A DNA stretch of 12,292 nt from a virus (IMGVR_UViG_2547132278_000008:1-12292), one strand, 5' to 3'; counted from the first letter of the stretch, positions 2,933-12,292 are shown. The notes: a model not told the origin generated them from the sequence alone. Numbers and translations: made by a program.

Positions 2933-3514
2933 TAGATAAGTACAAACTATTCATAAAGTGAATTGTAAGTGCTAAGATCTGATAGTTTCCAGTCGTAGAC
3001 TGGAGACTCGACCTGATGGGTGGGGGTAAGCGTCACTGGCGTCAGGTTTAAAAAAGCTCACTACCAGCGTAGAACTGGTGCCGTTTAGGTGTCGGGGAAG
3101 GGGGAACCAAAGTGAGCAGAGACAAGGGTCACTTTATGATTGTCGAGTCTGGGGTGTTTCGAGAGGTTGAATCCAGTACTCCCCTTCATAAAGTGTGGGA
3201 AGATCTCGGTTCTGGGGTGCTGTCATCCATAACTTCCCAAGTCTAAGCTGGCAGTAGACTTAGACCATAACTTTTCAGGTTATGAAACGACCAGGTTGGT
3301 GAGAGATTTTTATACTCACCTCCCTGGGAGAGTATTACCTGAAAAGACAACCTCTCACTTCGTTCGAGGTGAACTTCACTCACTTCGTTCGTTCAGTTCA
3401 GGTTTATAAAAACCTGTTCTGGGAAGTAATTTGTTTATTTTAATAATTATTAACACGCACGCGTGTGCGCACGCGCGAGGAAAAATCGGCGCGGCGCTTG
3501 ATTCAGGAGTTTAT
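2933..3514. other. ORF-free, repeat-rich and hairpin-rich intergenic region; candidate structured ncRNA, origin or regulatory hub
   Basis: No ORF of 60 aa or more on either strand. Hairpins include CCAGTC gta GACTGG (2989-3003), GGTGAG...CTCACC (3298-3320) and AGGTTT ataa AAACCT (3401-3416). Direct repeats include TCTGGGGTG at 3138-3146 and 3211-3219, and CACTTCGTTCG at 3356-3366 and 3381-3391. Confidence 0.3.
3453..3477. repeat. 25-nt perfectly alternating purine-pyrimidine tract (Z-DNA-prone) with central CACGCGTG palindrome
   Basis: ACACGCACGCGTGTGCGCACGCGCG read directly; lies about 40 bp upstream of the RNase HI start codon. Confidence 0.9.
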
Positions 3515-4105
3515 ATGACGACGAAGACACCAGCCCGATCGCAAGCAAAAACTCGCAAAAAAGACAAAAACAAAAATTCTCCCCGCACCAATCCCACAAC
3601 GCCTGTCGTAGAGTTCAATCCCCAGCTTAAAACCGTGAAAATCTTTAGTGATGGCTCTTGCCTTAAAAATCCGGGTGGCCCGGGCGGTTACGGTATCGTT
3701 CTCCAGTATCGTGGTGAGGAACGCGAGTTCTCAGATGGTTTTCATAGCACCACCAATAACCGCATGGAGATGATGGGGGCACTTATCGGGCTGGAGCGTT
3801 TGAAATATCCATGCAACGTTATTTTGCACTCTGATAGCCAGTATCTGAAAAACGGCATGACACAGTGGATGAAATGGTGGAAACGCAATGGATGGATGAC
3901 TTCTGACAAAAAACCGGTAAAGAATGTTGATCTGTGGAAGCGTCTGGATGAGGCCGCAAGTCGACATAATGTTCGCTGGAAGTGGGTTAAAGGTCACGCC
4001 GGGCATCGTGAAAATGAAATATGTGATCGACTCGCGAAGATCGCAGCTTTTTCAGCAGCAGATATGCCTCACAAGAAAGATATTGGTTTTGTTTATAACA
4101 AATAG
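3515..4105 (+). CDS. Ribonuclease HI paralog (196 aa) with a ~45-aa basic N-terminal extension
   Basis: AGGAG at 3505-3509 precedes ATG 3515. The core aligns by eye to E. coli RNase HI with all catalytic residues present: IFSDGSC (D), NNRMEMMGA (E), HSDSQY (D), [18 protein letters not shown] (H, D). The extension is Lys/Arg/Pro/Thr-rich. Confidence 0.85.
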
Positions 4106-4253: not shown

Positions 4254-4748
4254 ATGGCACGTCAAACCTATTTCACTTCTGTAACTAAACGTCCTCGTTC
4301 TTTACGTCAAATTTTGGCCGAATTATTTAGCGGTCGTGTTATGTCACGTCTTGATGAACTAGAGACTACCGTTCGGTTGCTGAATGAACGTTTAGATAAT
4401 CAAGCGTCAGTTGTTGCGAACGTGGGGGCGATTGTTGCCTCTGGTTCTTCACGCGAAGCGAAAAGTACACGGCCTTTAGTGAAGGAGAAAAACAACAAGG
4501 ACAGTTCGAATGGAAAATTTTCAAAGAAAGAGGCTGAAACCAATGGCCTACGTTCTCATTATAGTTTCACTGGCGACGGTAGCCGTTCCAGCCGGCCAGA
4601 GCCTTTTGATGCCGGGTTCATCCATCACCACACCTCCGTCGACGACAATTACCACCACTCCAGTAGAGCGTCCTGTCACTCTGGATGGGATGACGGTGGA
4701 TGCGATACCTCAAGTTCATCCGGTTACTCAGGATCATGCTGTGACTAA
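4254..4748 (+). CDS. Hypothetical protein; N-terminal ~85 aa look coding, C-terminal part is doubtful (overlapped by a +1 frame ORF)
   Basis: GGAG at 4245-4248 precedes ATG 4254. The N-terminus is coiled-coil-like, but after about residue 90 the translation becomes Ser/His/Cys/Gly-rich low complexity. Confidence 0.35.
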   Translation: MARQTYFTSVTKRPRSLRQILAELFSGRVMSRLDELETTVRLLNERLDNQASVVANVGAIVASGSSREAKSTRPLVKEKNNKDSSNGKFSKKEAETNGLRSHYSFTGDGSRSSRPEPFDAGFIHHHTSVDDNYHHSSRASCHSGWDDGGCDTSSSSGYSGSCCD

Positions 4749-4761
4749 GGCGGTTGTATGA
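4510..4761 (+). CDS. Small putative secreted or membrane-anchored Thr/Pro-rich protein (83 aa)
   Basis: AAGGA at 4496-4500 precedes ATG 4510. It has a signal-peptide-like N-terminus (MENFQRKRLKPMAYVLIIVSLATVAVPAGQS) and a TTPPSTTITTTP tract, and its stop overlaps the next start as ATGA. Confidence 0.4.
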   Translation: MENFQRKRLKPMAYVLIIVSLATVAVPAGQSLLMPGSSITTPPSTTITTTPVERPVTLDGMTVDAIPQVHPVTQDHAVTKAVV

Positions 4762-4946
4762 ACTGGTTTTCAAATCACTTTGGAAAAATTTGGCTGGCAA
4801 TTCTTGCCCTCATGGCCGCCGGTTGGGTATCGAACATTATAAAACTTGTTTGCTCTGGCGATCTCCAGTTTCAGGCTGGCATGACCTTGGCTCGTGTAGT
4901 TGGGATTTTTGTTTTTCCAGTCGGTTCGGTACTTGGTTATTTCTGA
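4758..4946 (+). CDS. Small membrane protein (62 aa, two predicted transmembrane helices)
   Basis: ATG 4758 overlaps the preceding stop (ATGA). Hydrophobic segments IWLAILALMAAGWV and VVGIFVFPVGSVLGYF. Confidence 0.45.
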   Translation: MNWFSNHFGKIWLAILALMAAGWVSNIIKLVCSGDLQFQAGMTLARVVGIFVFPVGSVLGYF

Positions 4947-5001
4947 CGGCTGTTAGTGCATATGCATTGACCATCTTTGCGTAAGCAATTTATGTAATTA
5001 G

Positions 5002-5020
5002 AAAACAACTTGTTTTGACA
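5002..5020. promoter_or_regulatory. Perfect palindromic operator-like site AAAACAA-C-TTGTTTT overlapping a consensus TTGACA hexamer
   Basis: Read directly at 5002-5016; TTGACA at 5015-5020. Sits 23 nt upstream of ATG 5040. A possible -35/-10 pair (TTGACC 4967-4972, TATGTA 4991-4996) lies upstream, but the promoter assignment is uncertain. Confidence 0.45.
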
Positions 5021-5039
5021 AATAATAAAAGGAAAACAC

Positions 5040-5465
5040 ATGTTAGGTTTCTTCAAAAAGAAAACTCGTAAAGCTGTTATCGAAGTCAAAAAAATGGAGA
5101 ACCGTGATGCGGTTGAGGCCACCGTGTGGGGCGCGTACATGATCTCCTATGCCGACGGCACATGTGACGCAAAAGAAATTGCCATTCTTGAGAAGACAAT
5201 TGCAGCTCTGCCTGCGTTTTCTCCGTTTGCTGGTGAAATTGCCCAAATGAGCGCCAATATCCGTGCTCGTTACGAAGCGTCCCCTCGTTCTGCTAATGCA
5301 CAGGCTATTCGTGAGCTGTCTGATATTGCGGGTACTCCAGAGGCGGTCGATGTTCTGTGTCTGTGCCTTGATATTGCCGATCAGGACGGCATTGGTGAAC
5401 AAGAAGAGCAGGCACTGAAAAAGATCGCCCAGGCGCTTCAGTTGTCACTGGATGCTTATCTCTAA
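5040..5465 (+). CDS. TerB-like (tellurite-resistance TerB family) protein, 141 aa
   Basis: AAGGA at 5029-5033 precedes ATG 5040. Two TerB-type repeats with acidic Asp-Gly motifs (ISYADGTCDAKEIAILEK and CLDIADQDGIGEQEEQALKKI) match the TerB architecture from memory. Confidence 0.7.
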   Translation: MLGFFKKKTRKAVIEVKKMENRDAVEATVWGAYMISYADGTCDAKEIAILEKTIAALPAFSPFAGEIAQMSANIRARYEASPRSANAQAIRELSDIAGTPEAVDVLCLCLDIADQDGIGEQEEQALKKIAQALQLSLDAYL

Positions 5466-5623
5466 TGCTTGAGAGATTCCGGCTTGTGATCGTCATTGCT
5501 CTTCTGGTGATGGCGGTGTTGGTGGATTTTACGGGAAAGATGATGTCTGTCATTTCTGATGGCGTCCTCATTGGTTTGGCGATCTACTTCGCTTATCCGT
5601 TAGTTCGTAAAGCAAAGTGTTAA
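5465..5623 (+). CDS. Unannotated small membrane protein (52 aa), translationally coupled to the TerB-like gene
   Basis: TAATG stop/start overlap at 5463-5467. Hand translation gives MLERFRLVIVIALLVMAVLVDFTGKMMSVISDGVLIGLAIYFAYPLVRKAKC with two hydrophobic segments. It is below the 60-aa threshold of the ORF track. Confidence 0.5.
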   Translation: MLERFRLVIVIALLVMAVLVDFTGKMMSVISDGVLIGLAIYFAYPLVRKAKC

Positions 5624-5625
5624 TG

Positions 5626-5653
5626 ACAAGGGCCATTTGGCCCTTGTGTTTCG
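5626..5653 (+). terminator. Rho-independent terminator after the TerB-like/membrane pair
   Basis: ACAAGGGCC attt GGCCCTTGT forms a 9-bp stem, then GTTTCG. Confidence 0.5.
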
Positions 5654-5730
5654 TTGACCGAAATAGAGAGTTTGCACCTTTACGTTTAGCTTGCTCCCCT
5701 TTTATGCCACATCACAATAAAGCCAATAAG

Positions 5731-5745
5731 AAAACAACTTGTTTA
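5731..5745. promoter_or_regulatory. Second copy of the operator-like palindrome (AAAACAACTTGTTTA)
   Basis: Matches the 5002-5016 site at 14 of 15 positions within a shared AGAAAACAACTTGTTT context; sits 17 nt upstream of ATG 5763. Confidence 0.45.
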
Positions 5746-5762
5746 AGCATTAAGGAAAACAC

Positions 5763-6329
5763 ATGTGCGAGAAATGCAAAGCAATAGCTGATGAACAAAA
5801 CGCCCTATTCGAAGAAATGGATGCTAATGAACTTGTCAAAATGTTAGGCATTGTTCGGGGAACAGAAGACGTTTCTATATTTGAGAGACTGTTTACAGTA
5901 CTTAATTTTAATTCCACCTTTGAAGAGCCAACTCAGGTTGTAGCTTTGGCACACCATTTCGGTGTTCATTATCTTGCCGAAAAAGAGCGCGCTAATAAGT
6001 TGCAGGCGACTTTGGATATGGTGAGCGAGACTCAAGGAACCCATGACGGTAACAATAGTGAGACGATTATTGCCAGCAAAGATCGTGAAATTGCCGGACT
6101 TAAGTCTTCTCTAACGATGTTGATGTCTGCAATCAATCTTATGTCTTCTAAAGCGGGATATAAAATGCCATCACTAAACAGTGACGATCCAATGGCCGTT
6201 CGCCAGCTTTTGGGAGCAATGGCCGACCAGCTTGATGATACGAAAAGTCGGCTTGAAGACATGATGCGGGAGCTTACGCATCGCCACGACTTGAATAAGC
6301 AACCGCACAAAACGCAATACGCACTCTAA
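5763..6329 (+). CDS. Hypothetical protein (188 aa)
   Basis: AAGGA at 5752-5756 precedes ATG 5763. No recognised motif. The gene has its own operator-like site upstream and a terminator downstream. Confidence 0.6.
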   Translation: MCEKCKAIADEQNALFEEMDANELVKMLGIVRGTEDVSIFERLFTVLNFNSTFEEPTQVVALAHHFGVHYLAEKERANKLQATLDMVSETQGTHDGNNSETIIASKDREIAGLKSSLTMLMSAINLMSSKAGYKMPSLNSDDPMAVRQLLGAMADQLDDTKSRLEDMMRELTHRHDLNKQPHKTQYAL

Positions 6330-6427: not shown

Positions 6428-6472
6428 ATAATTACACCAATCAGAAAACAAATTATTTAATGGTGTAATTAT
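6428..6472. promoter_or_regulatory. 12-bp perfect inverted repeat embracing a degenerate operator motif and the start codon of the 6471 gene
   Basis: ATAATTACACCA (6428-6439) pairs with TGGTGTAATTAT (6461-6472). The 21-nt spacer holds AAAACAAaTTATTTA (6445-6459), and the A and T of ATG 6471 lie inside the right arm. Confidence 0.45.
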
Positions 6473-8156: not shown

Positions 8157-8217
8157 TAGGTAAATACTTACTTAATTTATGTAAGAATGTAGTTACTAAA
8201 CGATAAGAGAAAAACAC

Positions 8218-8922
8218 ATGAGCAACCTCCAGTTAGAGCATTTTAACGTCACAGGCCATTCCGATTTTCCTTTCAAGTTTACATTGAAAGGTTATGCAGA
8301 GGATGCGGTAGGCCAGATCATTATTGATAAAGGCATCGTTAAGTTTGAGGGGAATTTTGATGAATCCGCGAAAACATTCATAGACTTCGTTGCCAAACGT
8401 TGGAGCGAGCAATGGAAAGACCTGGAAAAGCGCGCTAGTGAGTTTGATCGGTTCATGGATGCAATGGATACAGCAAAAGAGGCTCTTGCTGCCGGGACTC
8501 CGTTAGATCTGGAGTCACTTTTCAACGGCGAAGTGGCCTCTGCGATGTTCGCCACCATGTTCGCGGGTGAGTTCGTCCGCAGCGGTGCCAAAAACTACCT
8601 TGAGCTGGATTACAACGTCCCTGCAATTGGCGATTTCGTCGTTACCATCCAACGCAAAGAAGGTAAGACGCCAGGTGAACGCGTCGCAGAGCTTGAGGCC
8701 GTTGTGGATCAGCGTAACGGAGAGTGTGACCGTTTGATCAACGAGCTTCATGCACTTCGGGAAGAAAGAATATGCGCGGGTAGTAATACACGTAATGCAG
8801 CGGATATCTACTTCCAGTTAGTTGAGGAATGCCAGATTCCACCAGGTGGCTCTCTTGTCGATTACGTCAGACATTTAATGGCGGAAGTTAACTCCAGCCA
8901 TAAAGATGGTGAGGTGCGCTGA
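8218..8922 (+). CDS. Hypothetical protein (234 aa), downstream of the methyltransferase fusion with no intervening terminator
   Basis: Leader ...AAGAGAAAAACACATG. Long ORF with a clean shadow pattern; no recognised motif. Confidence 0.6.
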   Translation: MSNLQLEHFNVTGHSDFPFKFTLKGYAEDAVGQIIIDKGIVKFEGNFDESAKTFIDFVAKRWSEQWKDLEKRASEFDRFMDAMDTAKEALAAGTPLDLESLFNGEVASAMFATMFAGEFVRSGAKNYLELDYNVPAIGDFVVTIQRKEGKTPGERVAELEAVVDQRNGECDRLINELHALREERICAGSNTRNAADIYFQLVEECQIPPGGSLVDYVRHLMAEVNSSHKDGEVR

Positions 8923-9332: not shown

Positions 9333-9367
9333 AAGGCCATAAGTTATGGCCTTAAATAAATTGTTTT
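9333..9367 (+). terminator. Hairpin with downstream T-tract (terminator-like); tail carries a degenerate operator half-site
   Basis: AAGGCCATAA g TTATGGCCTT (9333-9353), then AAATAAATTGTTTT (9354-9367). Confidence 0.45.
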
Positions 9368-9440
9368 CTACCTTTTCTTATTTGTGAAAATAAACCAGCA
9401 CTTGGTAGTGCTTATGTAACAGCAAAGAAGAGAAAAACAC

Positions 9441-9941
9441 ATGAGTAACAAAATCGAAAATCCCGTAGTTCTCATTCACAAGCGCGAGAACCACGACTCC
9501 TATGCGGTGGCGATCACCAATGGGAGTCACGATTTTTACGATGGCCTGCTAATGGCCTCAGTGTCGCCTGATGAGGCAGACAACTCTTTTGCCGTCTTCG
9601 CTATGGTTGGTTACTACATGGCTGCCGAAATTGAGAAGTTGCGGGCGCAAAGAGACGCATTAGCGGCGGAGAATGCAGCCCTGAAAGAATCTGAGCGAGC
9701 ATTCGATGCGATGTGTGCCGAGGAACACGGAGATAATTGGGTTAGCGAATTAACGGAGACTCCAGCCACCGATACTTTTCTGGCTGAAGTACGTGCGCAG
9801 GGCGTGGATATGGCTCGTAACGCGATGATTGATTTTGTTGATGGTGAAGTTGGGCCAAACAAGAACGTTCCGGGGCTGATTAGAGGCGCAGAGATATGCG
9901 TAAGTATTGCTGAACAGCTTCGTAAAGGAGTCATCCAGTGA
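9441..9941 (+). CDS. Hypothetical phage protein (166 aa), first gene of a six-gene coupled operon
   Basis: Leader ...GAAGAGAAAAACACATG. Contains a coiled-coil-like AEIEKLRAQRDALAAENAALKE segment. Confidence 0.6.
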   Translation: MSNKIENPVVLIHKRENHDSYAVAITNGSHDFYDGLLMASVSPDEADNSFAVFAMVGYYMAAEIEKLRAQRDALAAENAALKESERAFDAMCAEEHGDNWVSELTETPATDTFLAEVRAQGVDMARNAMIDFVDGEVGPNKNVPGLIRGAEICVSIAEQLRKGVIQ

Positions 9942-10405
9942 GCAAGATTGACTATCAGGCACTGCGTGAAAAGGCAGAGAAAGCAACGTGTGGTAAGTGG
10001 TCGCTCGAATATGGAGAGAGCCGATTTGATGGTGATGATGCGCTAATTCATCGTGAAGTTGCTGGATATATTCCTATTTGCAGAATTGAAGGAGCGCATC
10101 CTGAAAGCGGTTTCGATGAAGATTTCCAGATGGAACAGCAGGCCAATGCTGAATTCATCGCCGCAGCCAGTCCAGCTACCGTGCTGGCACTACTGGATGA
10201 GATCAACGCATTAGAGGAAACGCGTATCAACGATGTTTGCCGTATTGCGGAACTAACAAAACAACTGGAGTTGGCAAAATCAAAACTCAACGAGCAGCGT
10301 GAGTATTACGAGGGCGTTATCTCGGATGGAAGTAAGCGCATAGCCGCTCTTCTTCGCAAGGACAATCTTGCCAGCGCCACGAACATTGAAGGTGAAAGAA
10401 AATGA
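9938..10405 (+). CDS. Ead/Ea22-like phage protein (155 aa)
   Basis: GTG start with AAGGAG at 9925-9930; GTGA overlap with the upstream stop. The N-terminal [18 protein letters not shown] and later [23 protein letters not shown] resemble lambdoid Ea22-like proteins from memory. Confidence 0.6.
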
Positions 10406-10725
10406 CCACATCGCACTCTGCTATTACCCAAGAAAAAGCCTTCAACATACTCGAACGACTAGAGACGCTCGCTACGGAGGAGGATATATCCCCGGAGAAA
10501 CTGGTTGAGTTCAGCCGTGTGATATTGCGTCGCAAGAACGATATGGAGCGGCTGACATCTGGCGCTCCATCCTTATCAGTCAGGCGAACACTTTGTTGCA
10601 GCTTCTGCAACAAATCCCAGTACGCCGTCAAAAAGTTAATTGCTGGGGACGCCGTTTTCATCTGCGACGAGTGTGTGGATGTGTGCAACAGAATTATCCG
10701 GGGAGAGAAAGAGGGATCAGCATGA
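10402..10725 (+). CDS. Small protein with a C-terminal ClpX-type C4 zinc-finger domain (107 aa)
   Basis: ATGA overlap at 10402-10405. [35 protein letters not shown] aligns closely to the ClpX N-terminal zinc-binding domain ([34 protein letters not shown]). Confidence 0.65.
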
Positions 10726-11434: not shown

Positions 11435-11940
11435 TGACCACCGTTAACAATAAGAAATGCTACCCAAGCGAGAAATATCTTAATGAGCTGATCACCAACA
11501 TTGAGTTTGCTGCAAGGGCACCAGTTGAAGTCGTGAGAGCGATTGCAGCAGAGCTACAGAAGCACCGTAAGGCCTATGCCAATACAGCCGCATCTAAGGA
11601 TGGTTGGATAAGCTGTAGTGAGCGAATGCCTGTAATTGGCGAGCTAAATTGGAGAACTAGTTTTCCTTTACTGGTTATGTGTGAGATCGGCGTTATACCT
11701 GCTTATTACGGCTTTGTGAGCGTTAATGGTGATAGGCATTATGGCTTTATGGAGAGTCTTAAATACGGAGACGATAACGGCAACCATCCTCAAACTAATG
11801 AATATGGTCTGATTAGCAATGTCACACACTGGATGCCACTACCAGAACGCCGCAGGAGTCGAACAGTGAATAATGCAGAGTTATTTCAGAAAATATGTAA
11901 GCGTCAACGGAGCACCGTATTGACGCTTATTTATTGGTGA
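11434..11940 (+). CDS. DUF551-like phage protein; last ~14 codons and stop are supplied by the inserted IS66 terminus (3'-disrupted)
   Basis: TAATG overlap at 11432-11436. GWISCSERMP and THWMPLPE motifs are typical of DUF551 from memory. The IS-like terminus begins at 11897, inside the ORF. Confidence 0.55.
   Translation: MTTVNNKKCYPSEKYLNELITNIEFAARAPVEVVRAIAAELQKHRKAYANTAASKDGWISCSERMPVIGELNWRTSFPLLVMCEIGVIPAYYGFVSVNGDRHYGFMESLKYGDDNGNHPQTNEYGLISNVTHWMPLPERRRSRTVNNAELFQKICKRQRSTVLTLIYW
11897..11929. repeat. Terminal inverted repeat of the IS66-family element (starts GTAAGCG), containing an internal 9-bp palindrome
   Basis: GTAAGCGTCAACGGAGCACCGTATTGACGCTTA; IS66-family ends typically begin 5'-GTAA. 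Internal arms AAGCGTCAA and TTGACGCTT. Confidence 0.55.
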
Positions 11941-12292
11941 GTACTACGTTCCATGGCAGGAGTTCGTCAACACGGTTGGAGGGCCATTCCGGCAGTACGC
12001 TCAGAATATGGCGCAGATACGCTTCCGGATCGATACCGTTCAGTCGGCAGGTGCCGATCAGCCCGTACAGCAGTGCTCCACGCTCGCCGCCGTGATCGCT
12101 ACCGAAGAACACGTAATTTTTCTTTCCGAGACAGACTGCACGAAGCGCTCTTTCCGCTGTGTTATTGTCCACCTCCGCCAGACCGTCATCACTGTAATAA
12201 CAGAGGGCGTCCCACTGATTCAGTACATAGCTGAACGCTTCGCCCAGTCTGGATTTTTTCGACAGCGTGCCATTCTTCTCCACCATCCATTC
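11927..12292 (-). CDS. IS66-family transposase (TnpC-like), C-terminal part; 5' end outside window
   Basis: The - strand translation ...NNTAERALRAVCLGKKNYVFFGSDHGGERGALLYGLIGTCRLNGIDPEAYLRHILSVLPEWPSNRVDELLPWNVVLTNK matches the conserved IS66 transposase C-terminus from memory. Confidence 0.8.
   Translation of the reverse strand, partial: EWMVEKNGTLSKKSRLGEAFSYVLNQWDALCYYSDDGLAEVDNNTAERALRAVCLGKKNYVFFGSDHGGERGALLYGLIGTCRLNGIDPEAYLRHILSVLPEWPSNRVDELLPWNVVLTNK

Follow-up and report, generated by a model that had tools for sequence, protein, structure and literature searches.

The tciA-tciB gene pair of an SSU5-like phage-plasmid encodes a TerB-family protein and a small DUF3927 membrane protein

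The stretch under study, IMGVR_UViG_2547132278_000008:1-12292, is a viral DNA of 12,292 nucleotides that was analysed as a whole and is referred to as the window. Within it, two overlapping genes at 5040..5465 and 5465..5623 encode a TerB-family protein of 141 amino acids (aa) and a membrane protein of 52 aa belonging to the DUF3927 family. We identify this pair, with near certainty, as the tciA-tciB cassette named in phage P1; it is therefore already known and no new kind of element. Its carrier is an SSU5-like phage-plasmid of Escherichia coli, ~110 kb in size. RefSeq labels the two products as ‘tellurite/colicin resistance protein’ and ‘DUF3927 family protein’ (WP_000893470.1) in hundreds of ~110-kb phage-plasmids that are ~97% identical to the window, and the annotation of phage Cyrano names them ‘P1 TciA-like’ and ‘P1 TciB-like’. 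A preliminary description, made from the sequence alone, had reported a TerB-like gene overlapping, via TAATG, a 52-codon open reading frame (ORF) with two hydrophobic segments, the pair being placed between a perfect palindrome and a terminator. Our analysis recovered all of these features at the positions given there. The word ‘unannotated’, which that description had applied to the 52-codon ORF, holds within the ORF track of the first reading and not beyond it, as the ORF belongs to DUF3927 and PHROG 1470, has a RefSeq entry and corresponds to tciB of P1.

Both genes lie on the plus strand and start with ATG. The A at position 5465 is common to the TAA stop codon of tciA and the ATG start codon of tciB (CTCTAATGC), so that the genes overlap by one base, an arrangement from which coupled translation of TciA and TciB would be expected. 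The Shine-Dalgarno sequence of tciB itself is weak. For tciA, an AGGA Shine-Dalgarno sequence can be read at 5030..5033 (plus strand), and together with the start codon it forms the block AGGAAAACACATG (5030..5042, plus strand). Further upstream, we read from the sequence a putative sigma-70-like promoter (4967..4997, plus strand) consisting of TTGACC (4967-4972), a spacer of 17-18 nt and TTATGT/TATGTA. This promoter would put the start of transcription at about the start of the palindrome. The latter, an operator-like site at 5002..5016, is formed by two perfect 7-nt arms (AAAACAA and TTGTTTT) around a 1-nt centre (C) and lies 24 nt before the start of tciA. The unit ends directly after tciB at its own intrinsic terminator (5626..5655, plus strand), which begins 3 nt past the stop codon and comprises a hairpin (5626..5647) with a G+C-rich stem of 9 bp and a 4-nt loop, followed by GTTTCGTT. 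Folding of the hairpin gave -21.6 kcal/mol with z = -5.5, and its stem shows compensatory changes in comparison with Klebsiella-type relatives (caaggg/cccttg against cgaggg/ccctcg). An Rfam scan of the window returned no RNA family.

The product of tciA is a full-length TerB-family protein. It matches the Pfam family TerB (PF05099) over residues 33-136 with 31.5 bits, compared to a gathering cut-off of 24.4, and PHROG 632 (‘tellurite resistance’) with an E-value of 4.8e-63, and it shares 78.7% identity with TciA of P1. A profile of 14 phage TciA/TerB proteins aligned with the solved structure of Klebsiella TerB (2jxu_A) at an E-value of 1.2e-18; profile positions 13-142 were matched to chain residues 19-149, i.e., to the full length. 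The AlphaFold2 (AF2) model of TciA, with a predicted local distance difference test score (pLDDT) of 87.6 and a predicted template modelling score (pTM) of 0.84, contains six helices over residues 22-132 and a disordered tail (residues 1-12). The top match of this model in a Foldseek search was 2h5n (probability 1.0, TM 0.53-0.59) at an E-value of only 0.06, and the TerB structure 2jxu, obtained by nuclear magnetic resonance, was not ranked among the 50 matches listed. The family assignment thus rests on the sequence profile. Residues 1-20 of TciA form a strongly basic, lysine-rich tail (7 K/R vs 2 D/E), whereas the remainder, a six-helix bundle, is acidic (19 D/E vs 9 K/R). Judging from the alignment of the phage proteins, the conserved acidic positions are D23, D39/G40/E46, E92, D95 and D116/G117/E122. 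Among these, the DG..E motifs D39-G40-x5-E46 and D116-G117-x4-E122 vary little or not at all; they represent the paired acidic motifs of the family and constitute a putative metal site. Between the window and a Klebsiella-type homologue, the ratio of nonsynonymous to synonymous substitution rates (dN/dS) of tciA was 0.03.

A length of 52 codons and a weak Shine-Dalgarno sequence could also be expected of a chance ORF that is not translated. For tciB, we consider this explanation effectively refuted, with next to no probability left to it. TciB matches Pfam DUF3927 (PF13064) with an E-value of 3.4e-12 and 46.6 bits (cut-off 25), as well as PHROG 1470 (‘TciB-like inhibition of cell division or resistance to colicin’) with an E-value of 1.4e-21, and an identical protein was found on at least 1000 contigs. 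In unrelated phages the protein is kept at 25-45% identity with invariant residues, which among 17 family members at 29-45% identity are R6, D21, F22, T23, D32 and P45. Comparison with the Klebsiella-type homologue (65% amino-acid identity) yielded a dN/dS of 0.20 in frame vs 0.75 and 1.79 in the other two frames. Moreover, the overlap of stop and start codon is kept in 78 of 78 loci (see below). Thus, tciB is a real gene under purifying selection. A search with the single TciB sequence returned 16 cluster representatives, the query being too short to size the family.

The two hydrophobic stretches of TciB span residues 7-20 and 26-47 and are separated by a short DFTGK link. Both termini are basic, and by the positive-inside rule TciB would probably adopt an N-in/C-in hairpin in the inner membrane. 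We also considered TciB as a miniature TerC hairpin, as its MSxLxDG motif resembles the acidic membrane motif of TerC. This candidate was rejected, since an hhalign comparison with phage TerC gave a probability of 0.1.

The closest known system is the tciA-tciB-tciC series of P1, located downstream of the C1-controlled ban promoters (ban operon). Besides the likeness of the TciA proteins, a downstream gene of the same family (PHROG 1470, DUF3927) and the same stop/start overlap are found in P1 and in the window, and in both the pair is accessory and non-essential. There are, however, clear differences. The TciB proteins are only 38% identical, tciC is lacking from the window (best E-value of P1 TciC in tblastn 1.7), and no tRNA genes adjoin the pair. 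Furthermore, the pair in the window is a promoter-to-terminator unit of its own with an SSU5-type palindrome, whereas the P1 pair is embedded in the C1-controlled ban operon. Most non-P1 relatives are missing tciC too. A second point of comparison is provided by the ter operons (terZABCDE) of IncHI2 plasmids, Klebsiella and E. coli O157, to which the TerB structure 2JXU belongs. The likeness comprises full-length TerB homology, the helical bundle, the acidic motifs, and a TerB gene directly followed by the gene of a membrane protein. In contrast to these operons, the element carries no terC, terD, terZ, terA or terE, the partner is a 52-aa DUF3927 protein unlike TerC, and the context is that of a phage and not of a stress-resistance island. 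This absence covers TerC and TerD family genes in the window and all five genes in the annotation of its complete relative NZ_CP107145.1. Finally, lambdoid prophages carry TerB and DUF3927 pairs (tciA/tciB of phage JLK-2012, CP-933 prophages) of the same families, in the same order and with the overlap; these copies differ in being ~40% identical to the window proteins and in their place within the late operon, 3' of Q and 5' of the holin gene.

Along its whole extent, the segment 4200..6400 of the window shows 97-98% identity, or 97.5% as a single value, with plasmids from E. coli and its relatives. These number more than 170, measure ~110 kb and are typed as non-mobilizable; plasmids of Klebsiella are more distant matches. 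As a complete relative for comparison, we employed NZ_CP107145.1 (111,932 bp). It combines plasmid genes (RepB, ParB) with phage genes (siphovirus-type tail, capsid, portal, terminase) and with genes of replication and nucleotide metabolism (nrdAB, thyA, dnaE, DnaB-like helicase, RecA, ligase). Judging from these three gene sets, the element is a phage-plasmid of the SSU5/pSLy3 type, as named in PMC9600943, that is, a phage genome replicating as a plasmid. The ‘mobile island’ of the preliminary description is hence this phage-plasmid. The remaining genes of the window fit a phage-plasmid as well: exonuclease, Dam methylase, RNase HI, a DUF4942 methyltransferase, Ead/Ea22, a ClpX zinc-finger protein and DUF551.

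Conserved co-occurrence of the pair, which the preliminary description had named as a check, was found in each of the collections inspected. Scanning IMG/VR by TciB alignment yielded 80 loci, 78 of which had room upstream, and all 78 contain an ORF matching the TerB profile directly 5' of the tciB start and overlapping it. The junctions (0 or -3 nt) are 1-nt TAATG/TGATG overlaps in 58 loci and 4-nt GTGA overlaps in 20. Among species genomes chosen for a close TciA homologue (Citrobacter, Enterobacter, Erwinia, Pantoea, Rosenbergiella, Buttiauxella and others), a DUF3927 gene lies directly 3' of this homologue in 11 of 11. Fourteen lineages of diverse phages that possess a TerB-like gene were also compared. 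A DUF3927 ORF starts at -7 to +5 nt relative to the stop codon of this gene in nine, namely the window, P1, P7, the lambdoids JLK-2012 and Evi, the jumbo Erwinia phage ChrisDB, the N4-like FSL SP-058, Pseudomonas phiK7B1 and Pantoea LIET2. In Pseudomonas phages AF and Zuri, the TerB-like gene is followed, in the same overlapping position, by an unrelated small membrane protein with a single span (phrog_27356), and in Vibrio phage MS02 TerC adjoins TerB. The other two of the 14 lineages have a TerB-like gene without a membrane partner. The phrog_27356 ORFs (1932-2153 in the AF locus L008, 1943-2146 in the Zuri locus L015) have in common the motif C.WYGYQTERET.YA.FVGCMV, and the ORF of phage AF carries no annotation. 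Few accessory cassettes of enterobacterial phages are as widespread as the TerB and DUF3927 pair, which occurs in P1-like, SSU5-like, lambdoid, N4-like and jumbo phages.

The two genes have diverged independently of each other. Over nine phages, pairwise identities of TciA and of TciB are uncorrelated (rho 0.14, p 0.40), as illustrated by the comparisons of the window with P1 (TciA 79%, TciB 38%), of P1 with P7 (31% and 83%) and of JLK-2012 with ChrisDB (70% and 30%). Judging from these identities, tciA and tciB are shuffled against one another among phages. P1 and P7 have TciA alleles that are 31% identical, TciB proteins with near-identical C-terminal halves, and identical TciC proteins, a pattern that points to a recombination breakpoint within the cassette. 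A 196-aa TerB-DUF3927 fusion (P0113) was considered as Rosetta-stone evidence and rejected. It is found on a single Logan contig, where P1-type proteins are joined exactly at TAATG, and was given no weight because it looks like an artefact of a 1-nt assembly error or indel. We also observed that tciAB lies repeatedly in or beside the tRNA clusters of unrelated phages (P1, P7, JLK-2012, ChrisDB and phiK7B1). As the window contains no tRNA genes, this association does not apply here; in the related plasmid, four tRNA genes are located away from tciAB.

The palindrome upstream of tciA is a regulon site of the whole phage-plasmid and not an operator specific to tciAB. Two exact copies of GAAAACAACTTGTTT are present in the window (5002..5016 and 5731..5745), and matches with up to three mismatches number 6, compared to 0.59 expected. 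The second exact copy, outside the pair, heads the next unit (gene 5763..6329), while degenerate copies at 6446-6458 and 9354-9366 precede the genes starting at 6471 and 9441. On the gene strand of NZ_CP107145.1, 18 sites match AAACAAnTTGTTT with at most one mismatch, most of them shortly 5' of gene starts; for the 15-mer GAAAACAACTTGTTT, ~0.1 site would be expected in this plasmid on both strands at up to two mismatches. The sites mostly lie ~8-12 nt 3' of an AT-rich, -10-like element, which recurs at equal distance in the 17 sites other than that of tciA. Among the genes with the palindrome at their head are nrdB, an AAA ATPase gene, the gene of a DnaB-like helicase, tciA itself and the one that follows tciB. 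Since it is thus common to genes of replication and nucleotide metabolism, tciAB is wired into the transcription programme of the phage-plasmid itself. In Klebsiella-type relatives the palindrome is kept 5' of tciA despite diverged flanks; at P1-type and lambdoid tciAB loci it was not found. The palindromic regulon of the SSU5-like phage-plasmid represents a separate lead, of which our literature search found no description. A further recurrent element is the translation-initiation block G[GA]AAAACACATG, located in the window at 5030-5042, 5753-5765, 8208-8220 and 9431-9443; in NZ_CP107145.1 at least 12 gene starts carry it, always on the same strand. Such uniformity of 5' ends is unusual, and the reuse of the block suggests a shared translational or RNA-level signal.

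With respect to function, the explanation that we favour blends the near-certain identity of the pair with a mechanism. Taken as a whole we hold it to be reasonably probable, while its mechanistic part, considered by itself, is put forward tentatively, as possible rather than probable. TciB would insert in the inner membrane, probably as the hairpin described above, and would serve as the membrane partner of cytoplasmic TciA, by analogy with terB-terC and the binding of TerB to TerC. A TerC-TerB complex, in which TerC is an integral membrane protein, has been reported according to secondary accounts (Turkovicova 2016, as cited in PMC11003894 and PMC12054061). The proposed partnership of TciA and TciB is supported by the interchangeable membrane-protein neighbours at the same position. 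During the lytic phase, a shared phage regulator bound to the palindrome would control synthesis of the pair, which may tune the membrane or cation-stress physiology of the infected cell to the benefit of the phage. As an example, the pair could maintain an energised membrane in the face of pore-forming colicins, superinfecting phages or depolarising defences up to the moment of programmed lysis. Lytic expression is supported by the occurrence of the pair in Schitoviridae and jumbo phages. Wherever the transcription unit is known or can be deduced, it is a lytic one: the C1-repressed ban operon in P1, a position downstream of Q in lambdoid phages and, in the window, the promoter type common to nrdB and the DnaB-like helicase gene. 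Upon infection with P1vir, the transcript levels of tciA/B/C change (bioRxiv 10.64898/2025.12.28.696737). The pair is an accessory module and not essential: in a CRISPR interference (CRISPRi) screen of P1, tciA/B/C proved non-essential, and their knock-down had no effect on plating (PMC10695390).

Several observations weigh against this explanation. Our literature search found no experiment on TciA or TciB, and the tci names rest on homology only. The genes terC, terD and terZ, on which the phenotypes of ter operons depend according to Whelan 1995 as cited in PMC12054061, were not found in the element. TciB has no detectable similarity to TerC, and AF2 predicts it as a single continuous helix over residues 2-51 (pLDDT 89, pTM 0.43) and not as a hairpin. 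Furthermore, the uncorrelated divergence of TciA and TciB argues against a tightly co-evolving interface, and a strict scan for the sigma-70 consensus did not call the tciA promoter at 4967..4997.

A self-contained unit of promoter, genes and terminator is the classical style of a moron, and the pair might thus be a lysogenic-conversion cassette. The resident phage-plasmid or prophage would then express it and so provide its host with resistance to tellurite, colicins or phages, or with superinfection exclusion, a role implied by the inherited name ‘tellurite/colicin resistance’. One lambdoid variant of the pair alone occurs in 4557 blocks of the contig collection, and thousands of E. coli prophages keep the pair at the moron position downstream of Q. 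In E. coli chromosomes, its place in lambdoid prophages is 3' of the Q antiterminator gene and 5' of the holin gene. The ter operons inhibit phages and confer colicin resistance (PMC12054061), and tciAB has been viewed as possible host-fitness genes in D6-like elements, there as possible morons (PMC6799933), and in P1-like elements (PMC9603915). However, the pair is also found in strictly lytic phages (Schitoviridae/N4-like, jumbo and Pseudomonas phages), which have no lysogen to protect, and the P1 and lambdoid copies reside in lytic units under the control of a repressor or an antiterminator. The operator common to nrdB and helicase genes, the lack of the terC, terD and terZ genes needed for Ter phenotypes, and the decay of the TerB gene in some cryptic prophages likewise speak against a moron, and we regard this role as rather unlikely. 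In the cryptic lambdoid prophages of E. coli concerned, the TerB gene is a 48-aa fragment or not called, and the DUF3927 ORF is intact.

The pair could instead act in counter-defence, where the TerB homologue and its membrane partner would neutralise a membrane-acting defence of the host, for instance as a decoy for host TerC-TerB or by blocking depolarising abortive-infection effectors. Such a role, which we consider distinctly improbable, would fit the phage inhibition by host ter operons and, by the secondary accounts mentioned, the binding of TerB to TerC. It would also agree with the wide spread of the genes among temperate as well as lytic phages and with their dispensability when the host is a laboratory strain. 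In addition, eight regions of P1-like elements are variable, tciA/B/C being one of them, and about half of one subgroup has lost these genes (PMC9603915); arms-race accessory genes are often as variable. Yet neither protein resembles a described anti-defence protein in the PADLOC and PHROG libraries searched. To our knowledge, most E. coli hosts of these phages are without a ter operon, which also weighs against counter-defence.

The preliminary description had proposed an abortive-infection-type or membrane-toxin module, a proposal for which we found no support. In its wider form, TciB would be a membrane toxin or a holin-like pore former and TciA its regulator, the two making up an abortive-infection, toxin-antitoxin or lysis-timing module. 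In its very small size, its hydrophobicity and its charged C-terminus, TciB does recall class II holins and small membrane toxins, and in lambdoid prophages the pair lies directly 5' of the holin gene. These prophages, however, already possess a recognised, adjoining holin (PF04971) that is distinct from the pair. In the window, P1, N4-like and jumbo phages the pair stands outside the lysis cassette, and we found no endolysin or holin gene near tciAB in the window or its annotated relative. No match to either protein was returned from PADLOC-DB at E-values up to 0.01. The gene order places the putative regulator first and the toxin second, and together with the coupling this would lead to equal doses of both. 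The persistence of TerB alone in some phages, the occurrence of the pair in virulent phages and lytic-cycle units, and the P1 knock-down without a plating defect argue in the same direction, and we judge a toxin or holin module to be very improbable.

The explanation that we favour, a membrane-partnered TciA made in lytic growth, has a more general form. In it, a minimal unit of TerB and a membrane partner would serve the lytic growth of unrelated temperate and virulent phages, either by guarding the energised inner membrane or the cation balance from colicins, superinfection or depolarising defences of the host, or by timing lysis, with DUF3927, phrog_27356 and TerC as interchangeable partners. 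We give this generalisation a small chance. If it were true, the pair would offer the simplest experimental route into the biochemistry of Ter, which has long gone unexplained. The hypotheses on tciAB are narrowed by the near-universal pairing and overlap, by its occurrence in lytic units and virulent phages, and by the swappable membrane partner.

Some further features of the window were recorded. Directly 5' of the tciA promoter, a 62-aa ORF (4758-4946, plus strand) belongs to PHROG 6006 (unknown function) and looks hydrophobic by eye; its region is fused to TciA by some gene callers (P0025, 226 aa). The preceding gene (4254-4748, plus strand) encodes a 164-aa protein of PHROG 10411 with no Pfam match and a C-terminal tail rich in Ser, Cys, His and Asp (…SSSSGYSGSCCD). 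Just 5' of the rnhA start at 3515, an alternating purine-pyrimidine tract of G+C (cacgcacgcgtgtgcgcacgcgcg) extends over ~3465-3490; it falls inside a longer ORF initiated by TTG, and this TTG is probably not the real start. A protein of 107 aa (10402-10725, plus strand) joins an unknown N-terminal part to a ClpX-type C4 zinc finger (PF06689, E-value 1.2e-15) and might serve the phage as an adaptor or decoy for ClpX. At the 3' edge of the window, the minus strand carries the C-terminal part of an IS66-family transposase (11927-12286; PF03050 and PF13817), which suggests an insertion-sequence insertion in this copy of the phage-plasmid.

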